Positions 19,249-60,721 are shown, counted from the stretch's first letter. The stretch: 64,000 nt of DNA from Candidatus Fraserbacteria bacterium (GCA_037440025.1 JBBIUX010000001.1:11700-75699), one strand, 5' to 3'. Made by a program: numbers and translations. Notes: generated by a model not told the origin, from the sequence alone.

Positions 19249-19454
19249 GAGTCCTCCTTTTGAAGTCGGCTCGGGCCGGCCCGCTCCAGAAACAGCGCCC
19301 GCAGGGACCGTCTTACCGTTGCTCCCTTCCGGGCCTGGCGGGGTTCGTCGGCCTGCGCCGCCGCTCCACAGCGAGCCGACCCCAGCCAGACTTCGTCTGG
19401 ACTGTTCGCCGTGCCGCCAAAGGCGGCACGATGAACGGTGCAGGCGAAGCCTGC

Positions 19455-21779: not shown

Positions 21780-21828
21780 AAGCGAATGCTGTCCCTAAAG
21801 ATTATGCCCCTGAGTTTACTGGAACGAC

Positions 21829-21849
21829 CTGATCTCTTCAAGAGATCAG
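21829..21849 (-). terminator. perfect 10-bp-stem hairpin overlapping the DUF499 stop codon
   Basis: CTGATCTCTT-C-AAGAGATCAG. No clear U-tract, so terminator function is uncertain. Confidence 0.35.
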
Positions 21850-24536: not shown

Positions 24537-24548
24537 GGCATACTCCCT

Positions 24549-24821
24549 TCAGTAGACATCGCCTCGTGACGAAATTACCTCGACAGAGACAACCTTCTTC
24601 TCCTGATCCACCTTGTACACCACGCGGAGTTTGCCTACCCGATAGCGCAACCTGCCCTTGAGTCTGCCCCAAAGCCGCTTGATGCCGTGATGCTCAAAGT
24701 CGAAAGGATCATGTTCCAAGGCTGCAAAGCATTCGTCGAGTCTCTGAGCTGTGCTCTTATCCACACGCTGGTAATAGTTTGCAGCATTCTTCGATAGCTC
24801 GACGCGATACTTAGCGTGCAT
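24549..24821 (-). CDS. relE: RelE/ParE-family toxin
   Basis: MHAKYRVELSKNA..LKGRLRYRVGKLRVVYKVDQEKKVVSVEVISSRGDVY. Start moved to ATG 24819-24821, giving an 11-nt overlap with the antitoxin. Confidence 0.75.
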   Translation of the reverse strand: MHAKYRVELSKNAANYYQRVDKSTAQRLDECFAALEHDPFDFEHHGIKRLWGRLKGRLRYRVGKLRVVYKVDQEKKVVSVEVISSRGDVY

Positions 24822-25032
24822 TGCTGCGCTTGATCTTCCGCCATGGGATAGTCTCACCGCGCTCGACCTCGGCCTTGCCTTTTTCCCAAGCTTTCATAAA
24901 AGTTTCATCTTCGAGGAGTTCTAGCGTTGCGCCCCACTCCTCCAAGCGCTCCATCAACATCAACAGATCGCGCACCATTTCGTTCGGCAGTTCGTCAATG
25001 ATTGCTTTAGCCCGCTCTTTGACCGTCATCAC
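24811..25032 (-). CDS. antitoxin (Phd/YefM- or RelB-like) partner of RelE
   Basis: 73 aa, acidic, ..ATLELLEDETFMKAWEKGKAEVERGETIPW. GTG/ATG start overlaps the methylase TGA. Confidence 0.6.
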   Translation of the reverse strand: MMTVKERAKAIIDELPNEMVRDLLMLMERLEEWGATLELLEDETFMKAWEKGKAEVERGETIPWRKIKRSNAR

Positions 25033-27782
25033 CGATCACCTTTCTCTTCAAACAACCCCTTCTGCCCGCGCGGGGTTTCGCGCAGCGACTCTCTTCTGAG
25101 CAGCCCCTCGCGCGCGGGCATCAACTGCTCCAACAGCTTACGCTCTTCGTCGCCCTCAGGCAAGACACTCACTAAAGCCTGCGCTGCCCGCCAGAAACGC
25201 TCCGCCTCTAATAATCCCTCTTCTGCTAAGAACTTCTGCAAATTCTCCAGATCGCCCTTCTCCCAGAGCACCAGCGCTTTGTGCAACCCATTGATGAGTA
25301 GGGGCACAGCGTGCTGTGCCTCTACAGGACCTTCTTGTCTTTCAAAAGATTTCGGATCGCGGTCGAGAGCCGCCAGCACTCGCACTTTGTCTTTGAGTTT
25401 CTTCGCTAAGCCCACGTGAGCCAGCGCATCCAGCTCAACTCCCAGCACCTGCGAGAGTTTTCGGGCATCATCGTAGGGCACCTCGTTGGCGTCGTAGGCC
25501 CAGCGGAAGAGCACATAGAAGCGCGTGGGCGCGTCCACTTGGCCGACGCCCTCGGTCTTTAAGATCATCTCCAGCGCGAAGTCGGCCACAAGCCGGCGCA
25601 CTTCATCTAAGAGTTCGCTCACGGTGATCGTCTCTCCCGACGGGTGTAAGACTTTGTCGTAGCGTCCGAAGATTTCTACGGCGGGGCCGATGGCGGACAC
25701 AAAGAAATCAGCGCCACTGATGCCGACTTCCCAAAATTTTTTCAGTCGGTCGCGCACGCGGGCTTCCAGTTGGGGCTTCAACTCGTGATACCAAGCCGTG
25801 GTTGATTTCGTGGGGCGTTTTCGGCACGCGAGCAGAATCGTCGAGACGATAGAACCCTTGCCACGGGTGTGGGTGCTGGCCTCCATTTCTGTGTGCACAG
25901 GCCAAGAGGCAGTTGGATAGAGTCCGGCGTTCAAGAGGCTCTGAATGAGACTTTCCCAAGCTGCTGTTGATTTATGCGTGAACATGATGACGGCAAGTCC
26001 CTCGTCTTTGAGCACGCGATGGATCTCTTGAAATGACTGGGTGAGCAAGCGTTCGTAGTGGCGGTGGGAGATGCATTTTGCGCAAGCGCAGTTGGGGTTG
26101 TCGTCTTGGTGTCGTTTGGACTTGGCCGCCGTAGCCCATCTTGCCGGGTTGTGAACGATCTCTTCGTCCTTGGGCGTCAGCTGAGTCTGAAACGCATCGG
26201 GGTAGAGATGGCCGACGGAGCGTTTGAGCCAGACGTAGAAGAAGTCTGAGAGATCGGCGTAGGGCACGTTGTCGTAGTAGGGCGGGTCGATGACGACGGC
26301 GTGTAAGCTGGAGTCTATGAAATTGCTGAGCGAAGCTGCTGAGCCGACCATGGCATTAGAGCAACTTCGCGTGCTGATTGCCTCACGAGAAACTGCAGCT
26401 TTTATCCAGTCAATGGCTCCTTCAAAGCCACCTGTGGAGATGCTGAAAGGATCAATTTCGGTGTAATCCCAAATCATGTGAAGATGATGTCCAGAAAAGG
26501 TGTTTCTGATTAGCTCTCGGCTCGTATGCCAGCTGCAAAGAATTGAGTTGTAGTCACCCAACCGATCAACCGCTAACCCCAAATACGTCGCCACGGCCTT
26601 GGCGTAGTCGTCGTTGCAGCACTCTTTTTTGATTTCTTCATGGGCTTCTCTCACCAATCTCGCAAAGGTCGCCAGCGCCAAGGCTTGACGGGGGTTGAAG
26701 TATTTGCCCCACTCCGTAAGCCCATACGTGGGACGCTGTGAGGCTCCTTGACCAATCGTGCCGGGGCTTGGCTCATCGGGAACCAGCGATAACTCGTCCT
26801 TGTGATTAGCTTTCAGCTCTTCGAGCCTTCTCGCTGCCTTCTTGAACGCCTCTATGTGCTTCGAGTTTGCGACTGCATACTGACGCCCGCTGCCACGGCC
26901 CGTGGTCTTCACGACGGCTACTAATCTATGGCCCATGCGCTCTGCCTGCGCTTCGCTTCGCAAATAATCATCATCTGCCGTCCCACCGCAGAGCAAGCAA
27001 TGGGCCGTGGCCCTTCTGACGGTTCCCTGCGACGGCCAGTCTTCGTTCGCGCCCACGGTCACGACTTCAAAATCCACTCGCTTATCGTAGTGATTCACGA
27101 TGGGCTTGAGCGCGATGCGCTTGTTGGGTTTCTTGGCGAGCCAGAACTGGCGAAAGAGCGGAATCTCTGCGCCGCACGCGGGATTGGGACAGCGCACCGT
27201 GCGCGACCAGATATATGCGATGGGCGTTGCGCCATCAGGCTCTTTGGGGTAGAATTCCGCAAGCTCCGCTCGCGCCCGCTCCAGCACCCATTTGCCCCAG
27301 CGCTCCACGTCTTCATGTAGGGGCGAACGGCCGTTCGCCCCTACACCATATCTCTGCGGGTACTCCAAGGTCGCTTTCAGAATGAGATACGCCACAGGGT
27401 TGTATTCGACGGCATATGCCTCGCAGCCCAATCTCAAAGCTTCAAGGGGAATAGAGCCGCCGCCCGCGAATGAATCTAAGACTTTGGGCGGCCCGTCGGG
27501 ATAATGCTGTCGCAAGAGTTTGCGGGCTTCTTCGATGAGCGATGGGTGCGCATCCCAGTTGCACAGATTGATGAGAAAGCGCTTCAAGCGCTCGCGCTCC
27601 TCCTCAGATTCCGGGGAGGGGAGCAGTGCTCCGAGCACCGCAGCGCGGGCCACAACCAGAGGGCGTCTGGCCCACCAGACGTGCAGCGTTGAGATGTGCC
27701 CGTGACGAATGGCCTTCTCGCGCTTGGCCTCTTTACTCAGCTCAGCCAAGGGCAAGAGGTCTTCGATGAGATAACGCTTCAT
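25029..27782 (-). CDS. DUF1156 (COG1743) Zn-ribbon N6-adenine DNA methyltransferase
   Basis: 917 aa. HISTLHVWWARRP, VLDSFAGGGSIPLEA (SAM motif I), CPNPACGAEIPL..CLLCGG, VVIDPPYYDNVPY (motif IV). Confidence 0.85.
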   Translation of the reverse strand: MKRYLIEDLLPLAELSKEAKREKAIRHGHISTLHVWWARRPLVVARAAVLGALLPSPESEEERERLKRFLINLCNWDAHPSLIEEARKLLRQHYPDGPPKVLDSFAGGGSIPLEALRLGCEAYAVEYNPVAYLILKATLEYPQRYGVGANGRSPLHEDVERWGKWVLERARAELAEFYPKEPDGATPIAYIWSRTVRCPNPACGAEIPLFRQFWLAKKPNKRIALKPIVNHYDKRVDFEVVTVGANEDWPSQGTVRRATAHCLLCGGTADDDYLRSEAQAERMGHRLVAVVKTTGRGSGRQYAVANSKHIEAFKKAARRLEELKANHKDELSLVPDEPSPGTIGQGASQRPTYGLTEWGKYFNPRQALALATFARLVREAHEEIKKECCNDDYAKAVATYLGLAVDRLGDYNSILCSWHTSRELIRNTFSGHHLHMIWDYTEIDPFSISTGGFEGAIDWIKAAVSREAISTRSCSNAMVGSAASLSNFIDSSLHAVVIDPPYYDNVPYADLSDFFYVWLKRSVGHLYPDAFQTQLTPKDEEIVHNPARWATAAKSKRHQDDNPNCACAKCISHRHYERLLTQSFQEIHRVLKDEGLAVIMFTHKSTAAWESLIQSLLNAGLYPTASWPVHTEMEASTHTRGKGSIVSTILLACRKRPTKSTTAWYHELKPQLEARVRDRLKKFWEVGISGADFFVSAIGPAVEIFGRYDKVLHPSGETITVSELLDEVRRLVADFALEMILKTEGVGQVDAPTRFYVLFRWAYDANEVPYDDARKLSQVLGVELDALAHVGLAKKLKDKVRVLAALDRDPKSFERQEGPVEAQHAVPLLINGLHKALVLWEKGDLENLQKFLAEEGLLEAERFWRAAQALVSVLPEGDEERKLLEQLMPAREGLLRRESLRETPRGQKGLFEEKGDR
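27316..27343. repeat. perfect 28-bp palindrome inside the methylase CDS
   Basis: GTAGGGGCGAACGG|CCGTTCGCCCCTAC, translated VGANGRSPL. Sister palindrome at 47407-47434. Confidence 0.85.
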
Positions 27783-28093
27783 GGCAAATCCAGCGCGAAC
27801 TTGATCGCGTCGTTGACCGATTGGATTTTGGCTGTGTTGAGAAACGTGATTCGTCTTTGTAGCCAGACTTTACGCACCGTGATCAGATTGTCGAGATTGA
27901 CAGCGCAGCGGCGAGGTAGGCCATCTGAAGGCCCGAGCTCCACCTCGGCTCGAATGCCACGAATGTGCGTCGAAACCGGCGCCACCGTCACCCACTGGCG
28001 GATGCGATACGCTTCGTTACGGGAGACCAACACCACAGGCCGACGCCCAATAGGAGCAGGCAAGTCAGCCCACCAGACTTCGCCACGCCTCAC
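27779..28093 (-). CDS. mazF: MazF/PemK-family toxin
   Basis: (V)RRGEVWWADLPAPIGRRPVVLVSRNEAY..VAPVST. GTG 28091-28093 overlaps the antitoxin TGA (GTGA). Its own TGA overlaps the methylase ATG (ATGA). Confidence 0.8.
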   Translation of the reverse strand: MRRGEVWWADLPAPIGRRPVVLVSRNEAYRIRQWVTVAPVSTHIRGIRAEVELGPSDGLPRRCAVNLDNLITVRKVWLQRRITFLNTAKIQSVNDAIKFALDLP

Positions 28094-28356
28094 TTCTCCT
28101 CCCACTCGATTTCGGCCAAGAGTTGGCGGGCTATTTGATCGACCCCCGCCATCTCTTCTTCCGTCTCGGGATACTTCCGATAGCCTTCGATGTAGCGACG
28201 GACGTCTTCCGCTTCCCGCTGCGCCTTCAGCCAATGACGGATCGCATCGGCAATCACCGCGCTTCGGGACTTCTTGAGCTGCCGACGAAACTTCTCTACG
28301 GCCCGAAACTCTTCTTTGGGTAGGCTTACTGCAATCTTCACTGTATGAGCTGCCAT
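28090..28356 (-). CDS. ribbon-helix-helix (CopG/MazE-like) antitoxin
   Basis: 88 aa. VKIAVSLPKEEFRAVEKFRRQLKKSRSAVIADAIRHWL RHH signature. Confidence 0.75.
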   Translation of the reverse strand: MAAHTVKIAVSLPKEEFRAVEKFRRQLKKSRSAVIADAIRHWLKAQREAEDVRRYIEGYRKYPETEEEMAGVDQIARQLLAEIEWEEK

Positions 28357-28423
28357 GATTCACCTCACAGTATGAACAAATGCATACTCAGTATAACTCT
28401 GGCGGACGGGCACTGTCAAACGC

Positions 28424-31400
28424 TTAGTTTTCAGACTCCACAGCCTTCTTCCAGTCGGCAAAGACCACTTTCACCGTGCGTAGGATCTCTTCGGGCGCAG
28501 GGAGTTTTTCAGCCGGGTTCTGAATCCGCGTAAGCTGCGGGCTCGTCAACGCATTCTCGACGGCATAGACCCAATATTTGTCTCCCAATCTTTGGGCCAT
28601 CTGCCATTCGTGCAGCGTAAGTTGCAGCTCACCCGTCGTCTGAAAACCCTTCACTTCGATGTGGCGTGTCTCATCGGGCCCTTGCGAAAGAATATCATAG
28701 CCGCGGAATTCTAACGAGACGTCTTGTGGGGTTCGCCCTTGAGCACGCTCGTAGCTCATCGCGACCGCCATAGCCGTTCGCTCGATTCGTTTCTTGAGTT
28801 CTTCATCAGCAAGTGCAGCCGCGGCTTGCTCGGTGAAAGTTCCCTTAGGCACGACGAGCGCCACGGCGATCAGCTCCGGCTCTAAGCGCACTAAAGCCAT
28901 CTCGCGCTCCAGTGCCTTCAAGCGCTCTGTCTTCTCGCGTACCAGCGCTTTGAGATGCTTCTCTTCTTCTTCGATGACCAGTCGCATGTCCTCGCCCGCG
29001 TCCAAACGCTTCTGATAGTCAAGCAATTTGCGATTCGATTCTGCCATCAAGGTGTTGAATGATCTTTCGAGATAGTCGCGCTTGATGCGGGTATCGCGCT
29101 CGCGGCGCGCTTTAGCTTCTTCGAAGACGCGATCTGTATAACGAGCGACCTCGCTTCTGATGGCCTCTTGGGCTTGCGTTAAGCCCTCGATAAAGTGTTG
29201 CGGGATGGTGGCATCTGGTTCAGCTCCCTCGAATTCCCACAGTACGCGGGGATCTACGGCGCGCACCTCGGCGCTTGCTGAGTCATAGAAGAACGTCAGC
29301 AGTTGTTCGCGGGCCGTCTGGTTTTCCCCATCGAGCACCTGAGCGCAATAGAACCAGAGTGAACCCGACCGCCCTTTGGGATCGAGCAAGAGCGTGCGCA
29401 GGGGCTTCTCTTTGCCTTGTAGAAAGTGCTCACAGAGAGCCTCAAAGAGCGGATGCCCCGGCGCCAAAAGCTCCGGTAGCGTCTCAGCTTCTTTAATCAC
29501 TTTGCGCTCGAAGGCGACCCTCAGCCCGCGCACGAGAGAGTCGGGCAAGTGAAATTTTTTAGCGAACTCCCGCGGCACGGCGACCTTCCAGACGCCCTTG
29601 TCTTTCTTATCGGCCTGCATCGTCCCGCCGATTAGTCCCAGGGCTTCTCTGGTGAAGCGCTCGACGTCCCAGGGGACTAAACGCATCTCCAGCGAGCGCG
29701 TGTCCTCTTGTAAGATCGCCATGTGATCAATGTGATGGCTGGCCAGCGCGCTCTCTTCTAAAGCTCTTCTATATTGCTGAAAAGCCTGCTCAAGATCGCG
29801 CGTGAAAGTGACCTCGACTTCTTGCGGACTGTCCTTGAGCACGGCCTGCATCACTAACTGTTCGAGCTTTACGCCCTCTAAGAGCGTCCCCACGACATCG
29901 TAGACGCTGTCGCCCAACTGTTGGCGCATCTCGTTGAGCTTTTCCAAGAGCGTGTCCAGAACCTGCCCCTCGCGAGTTTGGTGGTAGAGCATGTTATAGA
30001 CAAAGCAATCGCGCTTCTGCCCGTAGCGATGGATGCGCCCCATGCGCTGTTCCAATCTATTGGGGTTCCACGGCAGATCGTAGTTGACCATCAGGCGACA
30101 GAATTGCAAATTTAAGCCTTCCCCAGCAGCCTCGGTAGCCACCATCACTTGGACGTCTGGGGCGCGAAAGCGGCGCTCTTGCTCGATGCGTTCTGAGAGC
30201 GTCATCTCGCCGTGAATTGTGGCCGTCTCATAGCCCCACTCGCGGAAGCGTTTGATCAGCCCGTAGAGCGTGTCTTTGAACTCCGTGAAGACGAGCAGCT
30301 TTTCATCAGAGTCGTTCTTCAGATGTCTTTCGACGAGTCCGCGCAGCTGCTCGGTCTTGGCTTCTTGACTGACTCTTGCGGCTTGCTGAGCAAGCTGGAT
30401 GAGCCGATCGAGGTGGCGGATCTCATCGCGCAGCTCTTCAGGGCTTTCGGCAGCGGTCAGCCCCTCGCGCTGCTCTTCAAAACGCTCACGCTCTTGAGCC
30501 GTATAGTCTTCGGGTTCTTCGTCTGGGGCGTCTGTGGGGAGTTCGTATTCGGTGTCGCGCACGGCTTCCCAGCGGTCCAAGAGCGTAAGCAGCTTCGCTC
30601 GGCGGCGCTTGAGCGATTCGCCAATGGCCGTCAGGCTCGAAGCTAAACGCCGTTGGAGCACGACCAAGGCCAAGCCGATGTTGCGGCTGCGACGGTCTTT
30701 CGCTGCGGCGACGCGCCCGTACCATTTCTTCACATAAGCTGTGACGGCTTCATAGAGCTTCGCTTCTTCGGAGGAGAGAGCCACCTTGAGGCTGCTGACC
30801 TCGCGTTTCTTGAAGAGCGGGTTACCCAAAAGATCTTTCGCTTGTTCTTTAGAGCGTCGCAGCACGAAGGGGAGCTGTCCTTGCGCTCGAGAGGTTTCTA
30901 ATAAATGCCATTCGTCGGCGAAGAGGTAGGGCGCCAGCAGCTCGATCAGCTTAAAATACGCGAAGTGATCGCCCTTGTGAGGGGTGGCCGTCAAGAGCAA
31001 CAGATGCGTGGTCGCCCGCGCGAGCGCCGCGCCCAGCTCGTAGCGCTGCGTGCGCTTTTCTTCTCGACCGTACTTGGCTGCCGAGAGCTCATGAGCTTCG
31101 TCGAAGATGACCAAGTCCCAGCGTCGGCGGCTGAGCAGTTGGGGGTAGGGCTCGCGCTTGGCGAAGTCTAATGAAGTGATCAATTGCGGGTTGCGTTCGA
31201 GAAAGTCATCCGAGCGGAGTTGCTCGGCAAGCCCGCGATCTATCTGGGTGAACTCTTCGCGGAACCAATCGCGCATCTCGCGGCACCATTGGTCTTGCAG
31301 ATGGGCGGGGACGACAAGTAAGACGCGCCGCACAACGCCGCGTACTTTCAGTTCTTTCATAAGCAGTCCGGCCATGATCGTCTTGCCCAAGCCGGGATCG

Positions 31401-31804
31401 TCTGTGAGAAGAAAGCGCACCTTGGGCAAGGGCAAGATATGCTTATAGACCGCGTCCACCTGATGGGGCAGGAGATCTACTTGGGTGACGCTGACAGCAT
31501 AGTGAGGGTCGAACGTATAAGCCAAGCGCATACGAAGCGCTTCCGCGTAGAGCAAGAAGGGCTTCTGAGGTAGCAGATTTCCTTGAGCGAACTGTTCTCT
31601 CAAAGAAGGGATAACCTTCACCCGCTGGGACAACTCTTCAGGGCTTAGGTAGAACGTTTCTGCGCGTTTGCTCTGCTGAAAGATGAGGCCGAGCCGGATC
31701 TTTTCCCCCACAGGTTCGCAGAGGAAGACTTGAGCAGTCTCCTCGAAGGGGGCTAGCCGAACCAGATCGCCGTGACGGAGTAAGGGCTTGGCTTGGGGTG
31801 TCAT
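28424..31804 (-). CDS. SNF2-family helicase with C-terminal DUF3883 nuclease-like domain
   Basis: 1126 aa. LLTDDPGLGKT, FDEAHEL, LLLTATPHKGD, QRMGRIHRYGQ. C-terminus GYDILSQG..RHIEVKG..LTLHEWQMAQRLGDKYWVYAV. Confidence 0.85.
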   Translation of the reverse strand: MTPQAKPLLRHGDLVRLAPFEETAQVFLCEPVGEKIRLGLIFQQSKRAETFYLSPEELSQRVKVIPSLREQFAQGNLLPQKPFLLYAEALRMRLAYTFDPHYAVSVTQVDLLPHQVDAVYKHILPLPKVRFLLTDDPGLGKTIMAGLLMKELKVRGVVRRVLLVVPAHLQDQWCREMRDWFREEFTQIDRGLAEQLRSDDFLERNPQLITSLDFAKREPYPQLLSRRRWDLVIFDEAHELSAAKYGREEKRTQRYELGAALARATTHLLLLTATPHKGDHFAYFKLIELLAPYLFADEWHLLETSRAQGQLPFVLRRSKEQAKDLLGNPLFKKREVSSLKVALSSEEAKLYEAVTAYVKKWYGRVAAAKDRRSRNIGLALVVLQRRLASSLTAIGESLKRRRAKLLTLLDRWEAVRDTEYELPTDAPDEEPEDYTAQERERFEEQREGLTAAESPEELRDEIRHLDRLIQLAQQAARVSQEAKTEQLRGLVERHLKNDSDEKLLVFTEFKDTLYGLIKRFREWGYETATIHGEMTLSERIEQERRFRAPDVQVMVATEAAGEGLNLQFCRLMVNYDLPWNPNRLEQRMGRIHRYGQKRDCFVYNMLYHQTREGQVLDTLLEKLNEMRQQLGDSVYDVVGTLLEGVKLEQLVMQAVLKDSPQEVEVTFTRDLEQAFQQYRRALEESALASHHIDHMAILQEDTRSLEMRLVPWDVERFTREALGLIGGTMQADKKDKGVWKVAVPREFAKKFHLPDSLVRGLRVAFERKVIKEAETLPELLAPGHPLFEALCEHFLQGKEKPLRTLLLDPKGRSGSLWFYCAQVLDGENQTAREQLLTFFYDSASAEVRAVDPRVLWEFEGAEPDATIPQHFIEGLTQAQEAIRSEVARYTDRVFEEAKARRERDTRIKRDYLERSFNTLMAESNRKLLDYQKRLDAGEDMRLVIEEEEKHLKALVREKTERLKALEREMALVRLEPELIAVALVVPKGTFTEQAAAALADEELKKRIERTAMAVAMSYERAQGRTPQDVSLEFRGYDILSQGPDETRHIEVKGFQTTGELQLTLHEWQMAQRLGDKYWVYAVENALTSPQLTRIQNPAEKLPAPEEILRTVKVVFADWKKAVESEN

Positions 31805-31853
31805 GATCCCTCAAGGCTTGGCACTCTGCGCTAGAAACTTTCAACTATCTTGC

Positions 31854-31930
31854 TGGTACGCCCGGGAGGACTTGAACCTCCGACCTCTGGCTCCGCAGGC
31901 CAGCGCTCTGATCCCCTGAGCTACGGGCGC
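31854..31930 (-). tRNA. tRNA-Arg (anticodon GCG), CCA encoded
   Basis: GCGCCCG-TA-GCTCAGGGGATCAGAGC-G-CTGGC-CTGCGGA-GCCAG-AGGTC-GGAGGTTCAAGTCCTCC-CGGGCGT-A-CCA. Closely resembles my recollection of E. coli tRNA-Arg. Confidence 0.9.
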
Positions 31931-31987
31931 GTGTGCACGGCTATTCTAACAGGCAAACAGAGGCTTGTCAACGGGCAAATCCCCCTC
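31865..31987. repeat. attL: 123-bp direct repeat (tRNA-Arg nt 1-66 plus 57 bp upstream)
   Basis: Identical by eye to 37879-38001. Confidence 0.9.
31943..31971 (-). promoter_or_regulatory. consensus sigma70 promoter of tRNA-Arg (lies inside the direct repeat)
   Basis: Minus strand TTGACA (31966-31971), 17 nt, TAGAAT (31943-31948), 12 nt before the mature 5' end. Identical copy at 37957-37985. Confidence 0.7.
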
Positions 31988-32065
31988 TACTCACCCTCGA
32001 CTCTCCAGAGGCCGTCTGAGCCATAAAAAGGGGGTAGGCCAGCGGTCTTTTTTCGGCCAACTTTT

Positions 32066-32995
32066 ATGGTCAGCGAGACAGTCAACCAGCGGACGTTCGG
32101 TCAGCTCTCGGCAGCGTTCGAGGGCTTTCAGTTGTATGCCAGAATCGAGGGACGGTCAGCGAAGACGTTGGAAGTCTATCGGGTGGCTTTCCAAGACGTG
32201 CTCAGTTTCCTTGGGGAGAGCATAGCCTTATCCGACGTGGCTGCAGGGGATATACGGCGCTGGATTGCCCATAAATTGGACGCTGGCTACTCCAAGACGA
32301 CTATCAATATCCGGCTGCGTGCTTTGCGCGCCTTTTTTAACTGGCTTGTCCGAGAAGGGTATATGACGGAGAGACCCTTAGCCAACGTCAAGCAACTGCG
32401 AACGCCAAGACAGTATCCTTACGTGCTCTCAGAGCAACAGGTCATGGCGCTGCTGAGGGTTATCAAGCGAGACTCTTGGACGGGCAAGCGCAACTGGGCA
32501 ATGGCGCTGACCATGCTCGACGCCATGCTCCGGCTCTCCGAGCTTATCCACCTAGAGCTTGCAGACGTGAACTTGCAAGCTCGCTCAATAAGAGTGCGTC
32601 ACGGCAAGGGGGATAAAGAGCGCGTGGTCTTTATGGGCCGCCGTCTCACAAGGGCCATGCACGACTGGCTTGCGGTGAGAGGCTATCACGTCGGGGAAGA
32701 TAGAGTCTTTGTCACCCGTCAAGGCACAAAGCTCGACAGCCGCAACGTGCAACGGATACTCGAACGGTATGCAGCCAAGGCGAAACTGACGGACGTGCGG
32801 GTCAGCCCGCACACATTGAGACACACCGGCGCGACGCTCTTTATCAGATACGGCGGCGACCCCTTTAGCCTGCAAAAGCTCTTAGGTCACAGCACTGTCA
32901 CCGTGACAGAGATTTATGTGCACATGGCGGGCACGGCTTTGAGGGAAGCGCACGCCAAGGCGAGCCCGGTGGATAGGCTGTTGGAGGGGAGCTAA
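32066..32995 (+). CDS. tyrosine recombinase/integrase (XerC/D-like)
   Basis: 309 aa. N-terminal SAM-like core-binding domain (LRALRAFFNWLVREGY). Catalytic ..MLRLSEL..GKGDKER..SPHTLRHTGAT..LLGHSTVTVTEIYVH. Confidence 0.9.
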   Translation: MVSETVNQRTFGQLSAAFEGFQLYARIEGRSAKTLEVYRVAFQDVLSFLGESIALSDVAAGDIRRWIAHKLDAGYSKTTINIRLRALRAFFNWLVREGYMTERPLANVKQLRTPRQYPYVLSEQQVMALLRVIKRDSWTGKRNWAMALTMLDAMLRLSELIHLELADVNLQARSIRVRHGKGDKERVVFMGRRLTRAMHDWLAVRGYHVGEDRVFVTRQGTKLDSRNVQRILERYAAKAKLTDVRVSPHTLRHTGATLFIRYGGDPFSLQKLLGHSTVTVTEIYVHMAGTALREAHAKASPVDRLLEGS

Positions 32996-33087
32996 AACGA
33001 GAGTTTACCATTGTCCCCGGCTTAAAGGTCAGTCTTCCTTCATTTTCAGTGTAATGACCTAATAGAGTTCTAAGTTGGAGTGATTTT

Positions 33088-33810
33088 GTGCGGATAGTAG
33101 CTATATCTTTAATAGGTATGTTTTGGGCTGGTCTGCTCATTAGCTGTACACCTCAGCAGCCCTCCAACCAGAGCCCTGTGGCTGCAATCGAAGCTTCTGT
33201 TACCAGCGGCGAGGCTCCACTCACGGTAGTTCTGAGCGGGGCACGCTCGTATGACCCGGATGGGACAATCACCCGATATGAATGGGATTTGGGCAACGGA
33301 GATAAGTCGAGCGGGGTTTCTGTCACGCACATTTATCAGCAATCGGCCACTTTCACAGTAGGCCTTAGCGTGACCGACGATAAAGGAGCTACAGCTTCAG
33401 CCACAATTTCAATCACAGTTGCGAAGGCTAGCTGTCCGCGTGATAGCACAAGCAATGGACAACTTCGACTTGCGGTACGGTCTATAAGCGTGGCGAGTGA
33501 ACTCGGGATTTGGCAGCCAAGTGAGGGCAACAGATTCTTAATTGTGGACGTGTCGATAGAATCTCTAGCGGACGACCAGCTAGCGAATGCGTTACTCTTC
33601 AAAATTGAAGAAGAAGACGGTACAGCGCACGATATCAGTATAGCAACTGCTTCTCTTCCTAAACCATTTGAGTCTGTCACATTAGACCGTGGACAAAAAA
33701 CTGGCGGACAGCTTGCTTTTGAAGTCGGCCTTTCGGTTCGCCAAGTGAAACTGCACTATAAACCTCTGCTGACCGGCCAGAAAATGAAGTTATGTCTTAG
33801 CGTGCCGTAA
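33088..33810 (+). CDS. lipoprotein with PKD domain and DUF4352-like Ig-fold domain
   Basis: Lipobox LLISC. PKD pattern PLTVVLSGARSYDPDGTITRYEWDLGNGD..VGLSVTDDKGA. C-terminus ..GNRFLIVDVSIESL.. Confidence 0.6.
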   Translation: MRIVAISLIGMFWAGLLISCTPQQPSNQSPVAAIEASVTSGEAPLTVVLSGARSYDPDGTITRYEWDLGNGDKSSGVSVTHIYQQSATFTVGLSVTDDKGATASATISITVAKASCPRDSTSNGQLRLAVRSISVASELGIWQPSEGNRFLIVDVSIESLADDQLANALLFKIEEEDGTAHDISIATASLPKPFESVTLDRGQKTGGQLAFEVGLSVRQVKLHYKPLLTGQKMKLCLSVP

Positions 33811-33921
33811 GGAGACTGTTGACTATCTCCCATGATTTGCGTCACTGTCAAATTCGTCTACCTGTGTATCGTGAACAATCCTTGAGTGAGCGGCCCCCAA
33901 ACATTCAGAATCCCTTGACCG

Positions 33922-34662
33922 TCAGGCAAACAATCCATTGGCCAGAGGCCCCAACTCTCTCTCGACCTCTTCCCTGGTCACTATGCCCTCTCTTACAGCC
34001 TGCACTATCTCCTTTCGCCAATCCGATACTGCAATGTTATCCGTTGATTGACCAGCAGCAAGCCGCGCAGTCTTTAATGCTTCGCTGAGCACTTCGCAGT
34101 AGCGCTTGGACGCCGACGCAATCTGACAAAGCACGGCGACACTATTCTTATCTTGAGCCCTCAACTCCTCCAATAGCTTGCCACACTCTCGCGCTCCCTC
34201 ACGCGCTATCTGCATAGCTTCCAAGGCGCCCTCTACGGAAAGTAGGTTTATTTCGGCTAACGCGTCACCGACGGTTTCAACGGTTTTTTGCTGTGCTCGC
34301 GCTGCAATAGCTCTTTGGTTCTGTTCTCGCAGCTCGTTCCACTTTTCGGCCTTAATTCTGTCTGCCAGCGTGCGAGAGCTGATGCCCCAGCGCTTCTCAA
34401 TGTCCCGACAGGTAGGGTAGACCCTGTTGCCAGCCTCGTCTTCCCAGCCCAGCGTGTAGGCAGCTTTTATCTCGTCCCAGGGTATCCTGCGAAAGCCCAT
34501 TTTCACCCTGTCAATCGCTACGCAAATCCACCCGTTACCCGCACACGGGGCACCGGCCCGACTGACGAACCAGCGCGACACTAGCCCATTCTGAGGTTGG
34601 GCATACCCGCTGCCATAACCCTTGCAAGCGTCACACACTTGCAAGCCCGATACGTTGGCCAA
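33922..34662 (-). CDS. hypothetical protein (HTH-like segment; weak resemblance to phage small-terminase/regulator proteins)
   Basis: 246 aa. CDACKGYG near the N-terminus, RDIEKRWGISSRTLADRIKAEKW HTH-like, coiled C-terminal half. True start may be internal (MGFRRIPW). Confidence 0.4.
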   Translation of the reverse strand: MANVSGLQVCDACKGYGSGYAQPQNGLVSRWFVSRAGAPCAGNGWICVAIDRVKMGFRRIPWDEIKAAYTLGWEDEAGNRVYPTCRDIEKRWGISSRTLADRIKAEKWNELREQNQRAIAARAQQKTVETVGDALAEINLLSVEGALEAMQIAREGARECGKLLEELRAQDKNSVAVLCQIASASKRYCEVLSEALKTARLAAGQSTDNIAVSDWRKEIVQAVREGIVTREEVERELGPLANGLFA

Positions 34663-34717
34663 TTCGGCGGGATTGGCGACCCTCCGACACCGTTGCAGCT
34701 ATCTTATCCCAGATTTG

Positions 34718-34770
34718 TTTCGATTACTAGCCAATTCCATTGCGATTACTCTCAGCCTATTTTGATTCAC
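34718..34770. repeat. three iteron-like direct repeats, 20-22 bp spacing
   Basis: TTTCGATTACT (34718), TTGCGATTACT (34740), TTTTGATTCAC (34760), between the prim-pol stop and the start of 33922-34662. Confidence 0.45.
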
Positions 34771-34842
34771 AAGCAAATCCCCTCTTCTTTCCCTTGTGGG
34801 ACAGTTGCATTTCAAAATCCGCTTTTGAAGCCCTTTTTTTCT

Positions 34843-35754
34843 TCAAGTGTCCCGCTTACTAGTTGAGAGAGACATTGAAGACGTTGACGTGGCTATTGAC
34901 GCAAGACGTGAGACTGTTGACTTTGAAACTCCAGCAAGTCGCGCAATTTCGCGCCGAGAGAGCTTTGAATTTGCGAGTGCGACGCGCAGAACTTTGGAGA
35001 TTTTGTCTTCCGCGTCGCGTCGTTTCGCAGCTTCTTTTCGCGCAATACACTCGAAAGTGTAGTGAAGCTGCTTTTCAGAAAGCGGCGGGCGGTTTTGTAA
35101 GTTCCAGCCGCGCAAGAGCCGCCAGACAACCGTCTCCCAGTCGGATTGGTTAAAAGCACCGAGTAGCTTGCCCGCCATTTGAGCGGCGCTGACGTTGCGG
35201 TAGCCTTCGGGAACGCCGCGAACAATATCAGCAACGGTATCAGCTTTAGGACGGGCGCGGTGTCGCTTCAGCATTTCAAACAGCCAAGCTGGGCAGGGCG
35301 CGGGTTCGGCTTCGGTCGGTGGAATCACCCACTCGTAGACCTTGCCGGACGGGTGTATTGACGGCGGGGCGACGACGTAGCCGCCTTCACCACGCACGTC
35401 GAGACCGTCAGCAAGACTGGTCACACTGCGAATTGTCGCGTTCTGAAGCGAGAAATAGTAATGCTGCCCTCTTGCTGTCTCACAGAACGGCGTGACGGGC
35501 ACGCCCTTACCAAGCCGTTTTAGTGCCTCTTGCGCGTCGCAGTCAAGCACAAGCAAGTTGCTGATTTTCCCGCAGACGACGGCTATGTTTGCGTCCGCTT
35601 CTCTCTCAAAAAGCGTGACGATTTCGTCTTCGGTTAGCTTGCGCCGTTGAAACTCTTTCCAGCTGCGCGCCGGGGCCTTCGAGCAACGCGGGAGTGGAAA
35701 GACGTTGCAATTTAGCGTCTTGTGCAGTTCCAGCGCGGCTTCTAAAGCACTCAC
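34843..35754 (-). CDS. bifunctional DNA primase/polymerase (prim-pol N-terminal domain) protein
   Basis: 303 aa. ..NVFPLPRCSKAP..W..NIAVVCGKISNLLVLDCD..YYF..GLDVRGEGGYVVAPPSIHPSG pattern. C-terminal HTH (REIARLAGVSKSTVSRL). Confidence 0.75.
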   Translation of the reverse strand: MSALEAALELHKTLNCNVFPLPRCSKAPARSWKEFQRRKLTEDEIVTLFEREADANIAVVCGKISNLLVLDCDAQEALKRLGKGVPVTPFCETARGQHYYFSLQNATIRSVTSLADGLDVRGEGGYVVAPPSIHPSGKVYEWVIPPTEAEPAPCPAWLFEMLKRHRARPKADTVADIVRGVPEGYRNVSAAQMAGKLLGAFNQSDWETVVWRLLRGWNLQNRPPLSEKQLHYTFECIARKEAAKRRDAEDKISKVLRVALANSKLSRREIARLAGVSKSTVSRLASIATSTSSMSLSTSKRDT

Positions 35755-36128
35755 GCTCCCACCCCCGAAAAGAGCGGAAGCTGCTTAGCTCTTGCCTTTA
35801 CGCACAGTACTCTTTTCGCTGGAGCATGTGGATTCGGGCGACGCTCATACACTGCAAGCAGGGCTTCGAGAATTGGCCCCTTGTGCTCCGGCTTGAAGTG
35901 ATAAAGCTTGCGCCCAACGTAGCCCTCTTGAGGTTCACTGATAAACGGCAGCCCGACGTCATTACGACAGAGTTTCACGTCTGGATAGCGGAAAACATTG
36001 GCGTTGCCCTCGGTGATTGAAATGTCAGCAAAACAAAGCGCGTTACCCGTGCGACAATCCCAACGCACAAGCCTTTCGATTTCAACGGAAAGATTGCCTT
36101 GTGCAGGTTTTTCTGATAAAATTTTCAT
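35751..36128 (-). CDS. hypothetical protein (4-nt overlap with prim-pol)
   Basis: 125-aa ORF, translationally coupled to the downstream prim-pol gene. No recognisable domain. Confidence 0.45.
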   Translation of the reverse strand: MKILSEKPAQGNLSVEIERLVRWDCRTGNALCFADISITEGNANVFRYPDVKLCRNDVGLPFISEPQEGYVGRKLYHFKPEHKGPILEALLAVYERRPNPHAPAKRVLCVKARAKQLPLFSGVGA

Positions 36129-36186
36129 GTGCAGCCCCTTTGCCCCGTTTAGCTCGCGGGGCTTTTACTTTTATTCACACCTCAGT

Positions 36187-36369
36187 CTATCTCTCTGTTG
36201 GAGCTTGCTCGTTGCCAATCGCTTTGACAATCACCATTCGCGCGAACGAACTGACAGATAGACCGCGCTGCTGCGCAGCACGCCGGACACGCTCTTTCAG
36301 GTCAGGGTGCAAACGTACCCAGATATCGAATTCCGCGAACCGCTTGAAGGCTTGCTTATTCGTTTGCAT
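36187..36369 (-). CDS. ribbon-helix-helix (Arc/CopG-like) DNA-binding protein
   Basis: 60 aa. FDIWVRLHPDLKERVRRAAQQRGLSVSSFARMVIVKAI. Confidence 0.6.
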   Translation of the reverse strand: MQTNKQAFKRFAEFDIWVRLHPDLKERVRRAAQQRGLSVSSFARMVIVKAIGNEQAPTER

Positions 36370-36411
36370 AGTGATACTATTTTATGACTCTTTTAAGCTT
36401 GGGTGAAGGGA

Positions 36412-36933
36412 ATGTCAGCAAATCGGGAAACGATTACCAGAAGAGCACTTTTGAGCCGGTTCAAGCAGGAAATAGCGCAAAGCAAGAACTGGGACATGGC
36501 CGATTGGTGGCTTGAAGTCCAACAAGAGATTCTCCAATTAGGTTTCAATCCCCACGACTGTGAACACTTCGTCTCTACTAAGGGCCGCCTGTACGTTATC
36601 GCGTACTGCTCGGACAAAGAAAAGCTCAACGCTTTGGAAGAACGACTCAATGCCGTGATATTACTGCCCCGCAAGGTAGCAGCGCGATACTTAGGAATCA
36701 GTGTATCAGCTTTGGACAAGGCGTTAGAACGTGGCCGACTCTCTGCTATTGTCGGTTGGAGTGGTAGCGCTACTGCGGGGGAGCTTTTCCGCGAACGCCT
36801 CACTCAACGAGACAAAGACTCCAAGAAACGATATAAAGGCAAGCTATTCTCCAAAGTGTATTTTTTCAAGAGCGCATTAGACAGGTACCGGAAGAAGCGC
36901 TGGCATAGCCTGCAAAAGCCACCCCCAGAGTGA
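36412..36933 (+). CDS. HTH protein, excisionase/MerR-like C-terminal domain
   Basis: ..LLPRKVAARYLGISVSALDKALERGRLSAIVGW..KVYFFKSALDRY. ATG 36412 behind GAAGGGA (the ORF track starts at GTG 36403). Divergent from the RHH gene. Confidence 0.5.
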   Translation: MSANRETITRRALLSRFKQEIAQSKNWDMADWWLEVQQEILQLGFNPHDCEHFVSTKGRLYVIAYCSDKEKLNALEERLNAVILLPRKVAARYLGISVSALDKALERGRLSAIVGWSGSATAGELFRERLTQRDKDSKKRYKGKLFSKVYFFKSALDRYRKKRWHSLQKPPPE

Positions 36934-37246
36934 AAAGCCGGTATACCAGCAAGCCAGTAAGCTGGAAAATTTACCGAAGCTTGCGAAGGCCTTGAAAGTT
37001 CTGCCGAGCGAGCTAGTCGAGCTGTTCCCCGAAGGCAAGCGCTGGTTTTGGGTGCTGGTCAAGGCGTCTGTGAGAGATAAGGAACTGAACGATGCCCTAA
37101 TGAAACTTCGTGGGCTTCTTGCCCTACAAGAGCCCTAGCCTTTTACCCTTTACGCTGGGCGCGGCGGTCGCTCCAGAGAGCATAAAGAGCAAAGGCTGTG
37201 CCTGCAAGCAGGACGCCTAAGAGTAGGACGACTCCGGGCCAAATAT

Positions 37247-37438
37247 TCATTGCTTCTCTCCTTCCTTTAAGATTAGCACGCCGATAAGGTAGAAGCCAAT
37301 CCAGATTCCGAGGCCGCTGGCTGTCCAGAGCCAGTCGAACTCCTTGGCTAAGAATTGTCCGAGCAAGAGCGCACCGACGGCCAAGTTGGCGACTTCGCGT
37401 AGTCCTTCAGCAAGATACTCCTTTTGGCGCTGGGTCAT
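37247..37438 (-). CDS. small two-TM membrane protein
   Basis: MTQRQKEYLAEGLREVANLAVGALLLGQFL..WIGFYLIGVLIL. ATG 37436-37438 preferred over TTG 37444. Confidence 0.4.
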   Translation of the reverse strand: MTQRQKEYLAEGLREVANLAVGALLLGQFLAKEFDWLWTASGLGIWIGFYLIGVLILKEGEKQ

Positions 37439-37878
37439 GCTCAATCACTCACAATCCTGAGCCGTCGCACGCGCCGCAAATCTTCAACACTCACGCCGAG
37501 CTTCTTTGCTAGTTGGCGGGCCTTCTCTTCGGCCAGCACGGGTTTGACGCCGATATAGGCGACGTATTCTTGCCGTTGCGCTCTAGCTTCTTTATCCCAG
37601 ACGTTGCGCTTGAGCACGTGGTATTTTGCGTTCCGTCCTGCTTTGGCGAGAAATAAACTTATAACGTTCTCAGTATAGCACCGGTAACGGATAAAATCAA
37701 GTCTCGAAAAGGTGACGAATTTCCCCGTCTTCCCCGGCCCCTTGATTTGACGCCAGCGGGGGGTGGGCTACAATTTTGCTTACTGTCAAAAACAGATAGG
37801 CCAGCGGTCTTTGGCATGTCAGGCAGAAGAGCTAAACGAGGGGAAAAACCTGTTGGCAAGAGGGTTATCGCGCTTGCT

Positions 37879-38001
37879 GGAGGACTTGAACCTCCGACCT
37901 CTGGCTCCGCAGGCCAGCGCTCTGATCCCCTGAGCTACGGGCGCGTGTGCACGGCTATTCTAACAGGCAAACAGAGGCTTGTCAACGGGCAAATCCCCCT
38001 C
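37879..38001. repeat. attR: 123-bp direct repeat containing a 3'-truncated pseudo-tRNA-Arg (37879-37944, minus) and its promoter copy (37957-37985)
   Basis: Identical to 31865-31987. Lacks the last 11 nt (3' acceptor strand, discriminator, CCA); the sequence continues as AGCAAGCGCG on the minus strand. Confidence 0.9.
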
Positions 38002-38062
38002 ATGAACGAAGAGCCTTTGTACCCACTTGAGCAAGTCAACCAACCTCCAGTAGTGCGCCTAA

Positions 38063-38163
38063 TACTAATTCTACTTCATCGTGTCACTTTGTCATTCTGA
38101 GCAAAGCGAAGAATCCAGACCATTCGCTTCCGCTCAGGGTGACACCATGAATCGAGATTAGTA
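38063..38163. repeat. ~100-bp MITE-like element with terminal inverted repeats (family with 60622-60721)
   Basis: TACTAATTCTACTTCATCGTGTCA..GTCATTCTGAGCAAAGCGAAGAATC..TTCGCTTCCGCTCAGGGTGACACCATGAATCGAGATTAGTA. Confidence 0.8.
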
Positions 38164-60621: not shown

Positions 60622-60721
60622 TACTAATTCTACTGCATCGTGTCATTCTGAGCGCAGCGAAGAATCTTTCCAGAGAGACCTTTCGCTTCGCTCAAGGTGA
60701 CACAATGAACTGGAATTAGTA
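60622..60721. repeat. ~100-bp MITE-like element with terminal inverted repeats
   Basis: TACTAATTCTACTGCATCGTGTCATTCTGAGCGCAGCGAAGAATC..TTCGCTTCGCTCAAGGTGACACAATGAACTGGAATTAGTA. Sister of 38063-38163. Confidence 0.8.

Follow-up and report, generated by a model that had tools for sequence, protein, structure and literature searches.

A probable plasmid-like integrative element of reversed orientation at tRNA-Arg(GCG) in a Candidatus Fraserbacteria genome, and the family of Xer-like integrases to which it belongs

The stretch of DNA considered here, 64,000 nucleotides of a Candidatus Fraserbacteria bacterium (GCA_037440025.1 JBBIUX010000001.1:11700-75699; hereafter the window, at its full length), very probably carries at 31865-38001 a 6,014-bp plasmid-like integrative element that is site-specific for a tRNA-Arg(GCG) gene and sits in it in reversed orientation. 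A repeat search of the 64-kb window recovered two direct repeats of 123 bp, 31865-31987 and 37879-38001, which are 100% identical and offset by 6014 bp, and base-by-base comparison of the two copies shows that the identity is abrupt at both ends. Chance is far too weak to explain a perfect 123-bp repeat within 64 kb. The features on which the argument rests are the following.

31854-31930, minus strand: intact tRNA-Arg(GCG), 77 nt (ARAGORN; Rfam 68.2 bits), taken as the functional reconstituted gene, on the attL side of the attachment (att) sites
31865-31987, no strand: integrase-proximal copy of the 123-bp block, tRNA nucleotides 66-1 plus 57 bp upstream
31887-31903, minus strand: proposed core at the anticodon stem-loop, CTGGC-CTGCGGA-GCCAG, whose 7-nt loop (31892-31898) is the putative overlap region
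31943-31971, minus strand: predicted sigma70-type promoter TTGACA-17-TAGAAT with a TG-extended -10, inside the repeat and facing the tRNA
32035-32050, minus strand: P-arm motif AAAGACCGCTGGCCTA, a mimic of tRNA nucleotides 22-34 (AGAGCGCTGGCCT), 15 bp upstream of the integrase (int) ATG
32066-32995, plus strand: Xer-like tyrosine integrase, 309 amino acids (aa) (Pfam PF00589 3e-34, PF02899), with SAM-like core-binding and catalytic domains
37797-37812, minus strand: P'-arm copy of the 16-mer AAAGACCGCTGGCCTA, oriented like the P-arm copy and lying 67 bp inward of the distal repeat
37879-38001, no strand: distal copy of the 123-bp block (attR), holding pseudo-tRNA nucleotides 66-1 (37879-37944) and the same promoter (37957-37985)

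Read in the direction of the tRNA, the repeat begins 57 bp upstream of nucleotide 1 and ends at raw nucleotide 66, the last base of the T-stem. The proximal copy runs on into CGGGCGT+ACCA (31854-31864, 11 nt outside the repeat), a proper acceptor strand; the distal copy runs on into AGCAAGC+GCGA, which cannot pair with the 5' acceptor strand GCGCCCG, and for this reason the intact gene is the copy adjoining the integrase. ARAGORN and Rfam make a second, weaker tRNA call at 37869/37871-37944 (45.7 bits) with a broken acceptor. A first-pass annotation of the window had described two perfect 123-bp repeats at these positions, each made of tRNA nucleotides 1-66 plus 57 bp upstream and stopping at the T-stem/acceptor boundary, with the intact gene at the integrase-proximal end and the 11-nt 3' acceptor/CCA segment missing from the distal copy. 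The repeat search, the base-by-base comparison (in raw numbering), the two tRNA calls and the acceptor pairing bear out this description, with AGCAAGC+GCGA standing in place of the missing segment.

The anticodon of the target gene is an observation in its own right. GCG serves the CGN-family arginine tRNA in the window (31854-31930) and in the related loci L082, L085, L087, L093 and L180, and is common to all related genomes seen. Bacteria usually use an ACG anticodon, deaminated to ICG.

The integrase reading frame starts 135 bp from the 5' end of the tRNA, its ATG lying 78 bp from the repeat. The catalytic set R-K-H-R-H-Y is complete (R156, K181, H249, R252, H275 and Y284) and the nearest solved structures are XerA and XerD. 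The SAM-like core-binding domain begins at about residue 20, which leaves no room in the 309-aa protein for an arm-binding domain. A housekeeping role in dimer resolution, as for XerC, XerD or XerA, does not fit, the gene lying inside a 6-kb insert bounded by tRNA repeats. At this locus, then, a tyrosine recombinase with all catalytic residues stands at one end of the element, direct repeats of a tRNA segment bound it with one copy completing an intact tRNA, and the att identity block is the 5' part of the tRNA with the element on the 5' side of the gene. Close homologues of the integrase move with variable cargo, one of them in a phage, and the names on the homologues are those of Candidatus Acetothermia/Bipolaricaulota metagenome-assembled genomes (MAGs).

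How general is this arrangement? Loci were collected around integrases 49-92% identical to that of the window; a scan of genome contigs with the integrase alignment mostly matched generic Xer recombinases and gave L002 as its only useful locus. At 14 related loci the tRNA and int are on opposite strands, and 120-240 bp separate the 5' end of the tRNA from the start of int. The set comes to about 15 loci and nine tRNA species including the attP of a phage, that is, seven species beyond the window's own, or eight with the phage attP. The targets are distributed as follows.

Arg(GCG): L082, L085, L086, L180
Arg(CCG): L084, L087, L093
Arg(CCT): L094
Ser(TGA): L088, L095
Gly(GCC): L177
Lys(TTT): L181
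Gly(CCC): L002
Thr(TGT): L097

A partial distal copy of the tRNA is present wherever the far end of the element is on the contig; distal repeats were sought in L082, L084, L086, L095 and L096, and none occurs in the available DNA of these loci. The identity blocks and element lengths are these.

L085: tRNA nucleotides 1-65, element 7.5 kb
L087: nucleotide 1 to about 63, element 6.5 kb
L093: to the T-stem edge, element 6.0 kb
L094: nucleotides -3 to 65, 68 nt perfect, element 10.9 kb
L088: nucleotides -1 to 49, element 10.9 kb

Two sister integrases have the usual orientation, that of L179 (52% identical, tRNA-Leu) and that of L096 (49%, tRNA-Ala). In a rough neighbour-joining tree without support values, most reversed-orientation integrases form one clade, the two usual-orientation integrases are sister to it, and two reversed ones fall outside. 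That both orientations occur among integrases about 50% identical is plausible provided that the core is palindromic.

Three of the collected loci have peculiarities of their own. L179 (9830-11489, from a Bipolaricaulota MAG) is a 1.56-kb unit in the usual orientation that holds only the integrase and a 136-aa open reading frame (ORF); the 72-nt repeats at its ends begin at the anticodon stem of tRNA-Leu(GAG) and extend beyond the 3' end of that tRNA. L002 (5570-5649, 10581-10674), an element of 5 kb, encodes an integrase truncated at its N terminus (50% identical) and has tRNA-Gly(CCC) as its proximal tRNA; at the distal end stands an entire tRNA whose anticodon is TCC, and after it a 15-nt tandem copy of the anticodon arm with CCC. 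This arrangement suggests that the target was a Gly(TCC) gene and that integration altered the anticodon in the working copy, and conservative recombination does not explain the 15-nt duplication. Inside the L093 element (12047-12508) stand five iteron-like copies of AAATCGGCCAAATGGCCGTTTT, spaced by 117-146 bp, which may mark a replication origin.

Which partner contributes the 5' part of the working gene follows from the order of the parts. Recombination inside the 123 bp implies a former chromosome of left flank, tRNA 3' end, block and right flank, and a former element of P' arm, block, P arm and int. This topology forces the tRNA 5' of the crossover and its upstream DNA to be element-derived, the chromosome keeping only the 3' end. 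The repeats of the window are identical and so hold no allele marker, but one is available in L087, where nucleotide 21 is C in the functional attL tRNA, as in the sibling element L084, and G in the distal attR fragment, as in the tRNA of the related host L093. In L087, therefore, the 5' part of the working gene came from the element and the crossover lay 3' of nucleotide 21. The proposal of the first-pass annotation that the element restores the gene with a 5' part and a promoter is supported by the topology, by this sibling marker and by the predicted sigma70 promoter.

An unoccupied tRNA-Arg in related genomes, the comparison which that annotation had put forward as a check, was found for a sibling with the same target. 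In both L087 and L093 the sequences that flank the L085 element adjoin each other across a tRNA-Arg(GCG) that is uninterrupted: L085 1-296 corresponds to L087 7814-8109 and L085 7715-8422 to L087 8045-8715, and the two matches overlap by the 65-nt block. For the host lineage of the window, the uninterrupted target is seen at the level of unitigs (in the metagenomes X7 and X8, below). The other partner is represented by L099 (1-18544), a tailed-phage contig with terminase, portal, protease, ParB-methyltransferase and sigma factor genes and an integrase 66% identical to that of the window. Phage genes lie on both sides of the integrase, and upstream of it stand, in order, the P-arm motif, a TTGCCA-17-TACACT promoter, a truncated tRNA-Arg(TCT) (nucleotide 1 to about 46, T arm deleted, Rfam 26 bits) and the P'-arm motif. 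By this order of features the arrangement is a free attP of the kind the model predicts.

The predicted promoter in the window matches consensus at 11 of 12 positions (0.1 such sites are expected in shuffled sequences) and the end of its -10 hexamer is 12 nt before nucleotide 1 of the tRNA. From this near-consensus site on the element side, the element would supply the promoter of the reconstituted tRNA-Arg. Promoters of the TTGACA-N17-TAnnnT type lie on the element side at nearly all related loci. In the relatives the identity ends 0-3 nt upstream of tRNA nucleotide 1, in many exactly at the tRNA 5' end, and the element-side promoter is unlike the upstream DNA on the host side; the window is the exception, and the 57-bp upstream identity is, on these comparisons, peculiar to its host-element pair.

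The origin of this shared block is illuminated by hot-spring metagenomes. In X7 and X8 (and X6) a single unitig at a depth of about 450-580 agrees with the window, at 0 differences, over tRNA nucleotides 29-1, the 57-bp block and a further 7 nt, as far as 38008; beyond 38008 the X7/X8 unitig enters unrelated DNA (CGGCCATCGTGTGG...). No unitig branching into the P arm was found at the X7/X8 site, and the 3' part of the tRNA is present, intact and beside another 3' flank, on a unitig of equal depth. The site thus apparently resembles an unoccupied attB that already holds the promoter block. The identity extends over 123 bp rather than about 65 bp because the chromosomal site in the host lineage seems already to have the same 57-bp promoter block. 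Two origins of the block can be envisaged: an old element may have left its promoter in the chromosome, or a host promoter may have been copied by the element. The P arms of sibling elements share the GGATTTG..TTGACA region with the window block and their hosts are without it, and the distal block was at first favoured, on that sharing, as the relic of an earlier, tandem element. It was no longer preferred once the X7/X8 site had been found; integrase remnants or other element genes, sought in the window flanks as a test of it, were not found there.

Beside the site, the window DNA from 38008 on sits in another context in X7, X8 and X9, preceded by ...CCGCTGAGCTATGCTTTTGTGCAGGCTA, which resembles a further tRNA-like gene of the minus strand in its 5' region. 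Since the right flank occupies another context in these hot-spring relatives, a rearrangement has taken place beside the site, joining what look to be two tRNA-upstream regions in the window.

Within the identity blocks, the anticodon arm is the only tRNA part common to all, in both orientations. The blocks of L088 and of the L099 attP are without the T arm, ending at nucleotides 46-49, and the L179 block runs from the anticodon stem to the tRNA 3' end. An anticodon-loop core with accessory half-sites is on this evidence the somewhat better bet for the place of strand exchange. The candidate accessory half-sites are the two copies of AAAGACCGCTGGCCTA, a sequence for which the 64 kb contain no other match even at 3 mismatches. 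The tRNA segment that they mimic, nucleotides 22-34 (AGAGCGCTGGCCT), runs from the D-stem (3' strand) through the anticodon stem (5' strand) into the first two bases of the loop; from this likeness the motifs are putative binding sites for the integrase. When the arm motifs of the collected loci are aligned by their fixed position beside int, they read A-rich, GA[C/G]C, N, 5 nt, CT, C-rich, and in 10 of 13 loci the 5-nt block shares 4-5 of its 5 positions with the 5' strand of the cognate anticodon stem, changing with the target.

Arg-GCG and Arg-CCG: CTGGC
Arg-CCT: GCGGT
Ser (L095): ACAGT
Ser (L088): ACGGT
Gly-GCC: TCGGC

In the P arms of L180 and L181, which lie between tRNA and int, the half-site occurs as an inverted pair, e.g., AACCGCTGGCCT-15 nt-AGGCCAGCGGTT. 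Placed just upstream of int, the pair looks like a complete core-like site and might serve as an operator.

These elements of the system can be put together as follows. The attP of the element would consist of tRNA nucleotides 1-66 preceded by a sigma70 promoter. The integrase monomers would bind the two halves of the anticodon arm and exchange strands in the 7-nt anticodon loop. One extra copy of the half-site in each attP arm (32035-32050 and 37797-37812) would replace the arm-type sites of lambda-like systems, a substitution suggested by the want of an arm-binding domain in the integrase. After integration the working tRNA would be a chimera of element promoter and 5' part with a chromosomal 3' end (about nucleotides 67-77 plus anything 3' of the crossover), and the displaced chromosomal 5' part would be left at the far end, fused to element DNA unable to form an acceptor stem. 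A 58-aa protein encoded near that end may set directionality.

Several points weigh against this picture. The crossover is inferred and unmapped, and the identity in Arg-targeting elements reaches the T-stem edge, compatible with a crossover in the T loop. The mimicry by the arm motifs fails at 3 of 13 loci (L099, L002 and L097), and an unanchored best-12-mer scan of P arms against all tRNAs gave no separation of cognate from non-cognate pairs over a background of 9-10/12, so that the co-variation argument rests on the position-anchored 5-nt block. The activity of the promoter is a prediction from sequence, and the empty-site unitigs of X7 and X8 are joined by depth and identity rather than in one continuous contig. 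There is no direct evidence that the window copy excises or circularises, since k=31 unitigs cannot span a 123-bp repeat, and an element depth near that of the flanks gives no sign of a replicating free form.

The same element and geometry could operate with strand exchange in the T loop, using GGAGG-ACTTGAA-CCTCC (31865-31881), at the edge of the identity block, as the core. The T arm forms a perfect palindrome of 5-7-5, and in five Arg-targeting elements, independent of one another, the identity stops no more than 1-2 nt from the boundary between T-stem and acceptor. Other integrase subfamilies are known to use T-loop sublocations (Williams 2002, as cited in PMC8371274). Such a crossover is nevertheless unlikely, given that the T arm is missing from the att identity of L088 (58% identical, ending at nucleotide 49) and of the L099 attP (66% identical, about nucleotide 46), that the block of the usual-orientation sister L179 begins at the anticodon stem, and that the arm motifs mimic the anticodon stem and not the T stem. 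Of the T-stem edge emphasized in the first-pass annotation, what stands is that the repeat ends there and that this end is conserved in Arg-targeting elements; as a place of strand exchange it is improbable, in view of L088 and L099.

The remaining alternatives concern the state and origin of the window copy. The source run, a subsurface metagenome for which the Logan record gives SRR11582161, was examined as Logan k=31 unitigs. There one unitig of 123 nt, at depth 56, represents the repeat, with flanks at 42.5 and 29.5 and the element at about 25-37; the repeat being collapsed in this way, the integrated order rests on the path taken through it by the original assembler. A free circular replicon (attP) and an empty attB might have been threaded together through the repeat, since a repeat unitig at depth 56 with four flanking unitigs at 30-42 fits either arrangement and the element has its own replicase. 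This is improbable: the deposited contig (about 171 kb) is unbroken through both copies, siblings with 65-nt repeats, shorter than a read, are assembled as integrated in several independent metagenomes, and the element is no deeper than the chromosome; the att geometry and mechanism would in any case stay the same. RecA-dependent (Campbell-type) insertion or segmental duplication, with the integrase gene as a bystander, could draw on 123 bp of perfect identity, long enough for homologous recombination and including 57 bp upstream that a tyrosine-recombinase core does not need, but it would have to place 14 related integrase genes in the same position against different tRNAs, with repeats that span nucleotide 1 to nucleotides 49-66, many stopping exactly at the tRNA 5' end, with a conserved attP arm architecture, and with an empty site and a free attP in the family. 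We regard it as very improbable indeed. The ordinary segmental duplication that the first-pass annotation had set against its own reading is likewise not what is seen, in view of the same divergent position at 14 loci, the different tRNAs, the empty site and the free attP. The element could instead be a fixed, immobile relic on whose type of promoter the tRNA now permanently depends; no junction evidence for excision exists, and the promoter block at an apparently unoccupied site in relatives implies that such a sequence can persist without an element. Against this, and making it a rather unlikely account, stand perfect repeats, a full-length integrase with all catalytic residues and identical 16-mer arm motifs, where decay would be expected first.

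An integrated, site-specific element of reversed orientation is thus the reading preferred here. A wider proposal, less likely than not to be right, can be made tentatively: a bacterial Xer-like clade might have flipped its tRNA orientation via the palindromic anticodon-arm core, with target-coevolving half-site copies in both attP arms replacing the arm-binding domain, and the carried promoter, left behind, might permanently rewire host tRNA transcription, the window lineage being a case.

The rest of the element is made up of the following genes.

33088-33810, plus strand: predicted lipoprotein cargo with PKD and DUF4352 domains (domain match)
33922-34662, minus strand: 246-aa ORF, no family match (ORF call and family searches)
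34843-35754, minus strand: replicase with Prim-Pol, PriCT-1 and C-terminal helix-turn-helix (Pfam PF09250 1e-31; PHROG primase/polymerase)
35751-36128, minus strand: 125-aa ORF overlapping the start of the Prim-Pol gene (ORF call)
36187-36369, minus strand: ribbon-helix-helix (CopG/Arc-like) regulator, 60 aa (family match)
36403-36933, plus strand: 176-aa ORF, no family match (ORF call and family searches)
37247-37617, minus strand: two small ORFs of 65 aa and 58 aa, the latter at 37441-37617 (ORF call)

The 58-aa protein (37441-37617) is kept in five sibling elements and, on this conservation, may be a directionality factor or regulator. No structural or packaging PHROG matches, and so no virion genes, were found in the element, and because of this it is, on gene content, a small plasmid-like integrative element and not a prophage. 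Among the siblings the cargo varies and takes in primases of the Prim-Pol or D5 type, resolvases and PKD proteins; the last are present in L094, L095 and L097, and homologues of the Prim-Pol protein in L088, L094, L180 and L181.

On the other side of the tRNA, about 10 kb of the window (21783-31853) is absent from the syntenic L087 and L093, in which the conserved left flank ends right at the 3' end of tRNA-Arg(GCG). This island encodes an Hma defence system (HmaC 21846-24536, HmaB 25029-27782 and HmaA 28424-31804; PADLOC E-values 1e-133 to 1e-183) and two toxins (ParE 24549-24857 and PemK/MazF 27779-28363). It has no integrase, and a tRNA 3' fragment sought at its left border was not found. 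With the Hma island and the integrative element, accessory DNA therefore lies on both sides of the tRNA. Just beyond the element, at 38060-38163, is a 104-bp palindromic insert bounded by TA..TA and resembling a miniature inverted-repeat transposable element (DNA fold z = -6.2); it is missing from otherwise matching contigs in runs X2 and X10, and a second copy of its core lies at 60642-60666. Palindromic repeats of the repetitive extragenic palindrome type (..TTCGCCGGCCAAnGGCCGGCGAAG..) occur in L087 (8111-8180, 9578-9647 and 16347-16416) and in the window (19385-19452). They stand immediately upstream of several tRNA genes in these genomes and, at tRNA-Arg(GCG) sites that are unoccupied, make up the native DNA upstream.

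Programs that look for tRNA-targeting islands, like the textbook models, take the 3' end of the tRNA to be the part that an element carries, and by that assumption elements of the reversed clade would be missed or mis-bounded. The collected loci are a natural experiment in the evolution of target orientation and choice in simple tyrosine recombinases and also bear on whether mobile elements take over the promoters of essential host tRNA genes. They document mobile elements of the little-studied Bipolaricaulota/Acetothermia, and small integrases without an arm-binding domain and with tRNA-defined sites are possible tools, if active.

The geometry itself, which the first-pass annotation rightly held to be uncommon, has already been published as one that is rare in bacteria (PMC6563490; PMC8371274, citing Zhao & Williams 2002, Williams 2002 and Cossu 2017). 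To judge from its title and from its citations in PMC6563490 and PMC1635311, Zhao & Williams (2002) described a bacterial element whose att site is on the 5' side of a tRNA and whose upstream part is element-supplied. Compared by way of these citing papers, the window differs from that case in belonging to an Xer-like clade of Bipolaricaulota/Acetothermia-type genomes with many members and several tRNA targets. Krupovic et al. cite Zhao & Williams (2002) together with archaeal cases, and add CalSub-E1, a primpol element at tRNA-Ser (PMC6563490). According to the relevant passages of Badel et al. (2021), recombinant tRNA genes in bacteria keep their original promoter with very few exceptions and the element-promoter situation is 'seldomly' met (PMC8371274).

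The pTN3-like (SSV-type) integrases of Thermococcales and TKV4-like proviruses are alike in that attB is the tRNA gene's 5' half and the promoter is element-borne (Cossu 2017; Krupovic & Bamford 2008; as treated in PMC8371274). As described there, these systems are archaeal, their attP lies inside the integrase ORF so that the gene is split on integration ('suicidal'), and the tRNA comes under the integrase promoter (PMC8371274). The element of the window is instead bacterial, with attP upstream of an intact 309-aa gene and a divergent sigma70 promoter, as predicted, of its own for the tRNA; since attP is outside int, with the repeat 78 bp upstream of the ATG, it is not of the SSV/pTN3 type. 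CalSub-E1 (Ca. Caldiarchaeum subterraneum) shares with it the primpol and PriCT-1 replication proteins, as far as the account in PMC6563490 goes. The integrase of a Caldarchaeum MAG (P0078, L096), 49% identical to that of the window, has the usual orientation at tRNA-Ala.

The usual anticodon-loop tRNA integrases, as summarized in PMC8371274 from Williams (2002) and Campbell (2003), are likewise tyrosine recombinases with an anticodon stem-loop core (inverted stems and a 7-nt loop) and an identity block that restores the gene. The sister integrase of L179 (52% identical) fits this class exactly. In the window, by contrast, it is the 5' end and not the 3' end that the identity block reaches from the core, and the promoter must therefore be carried by the element. 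Its integrase is not of the lambda-type heterobivalent class, because it is without an arm-binding domain, and its arm motifs resemble the core half-site, unlike the distinct arm-type sites of lambda-type systems.

IntI1 at attI1 has accessory direct-repeat sites that are bound by the same protein as the core. The likeness to the window, a recombinase without an arm-binding domain and extra core-type half-sites beside the core, is one of analogy, binding to the arm motifs here being putative. The element of the window is a case of a known, rare geometry; what specialists may follow is the picture at the level of the family, with many loci, a free attP, usual-orientation sisters and arm motifs whose sequence follows the target.

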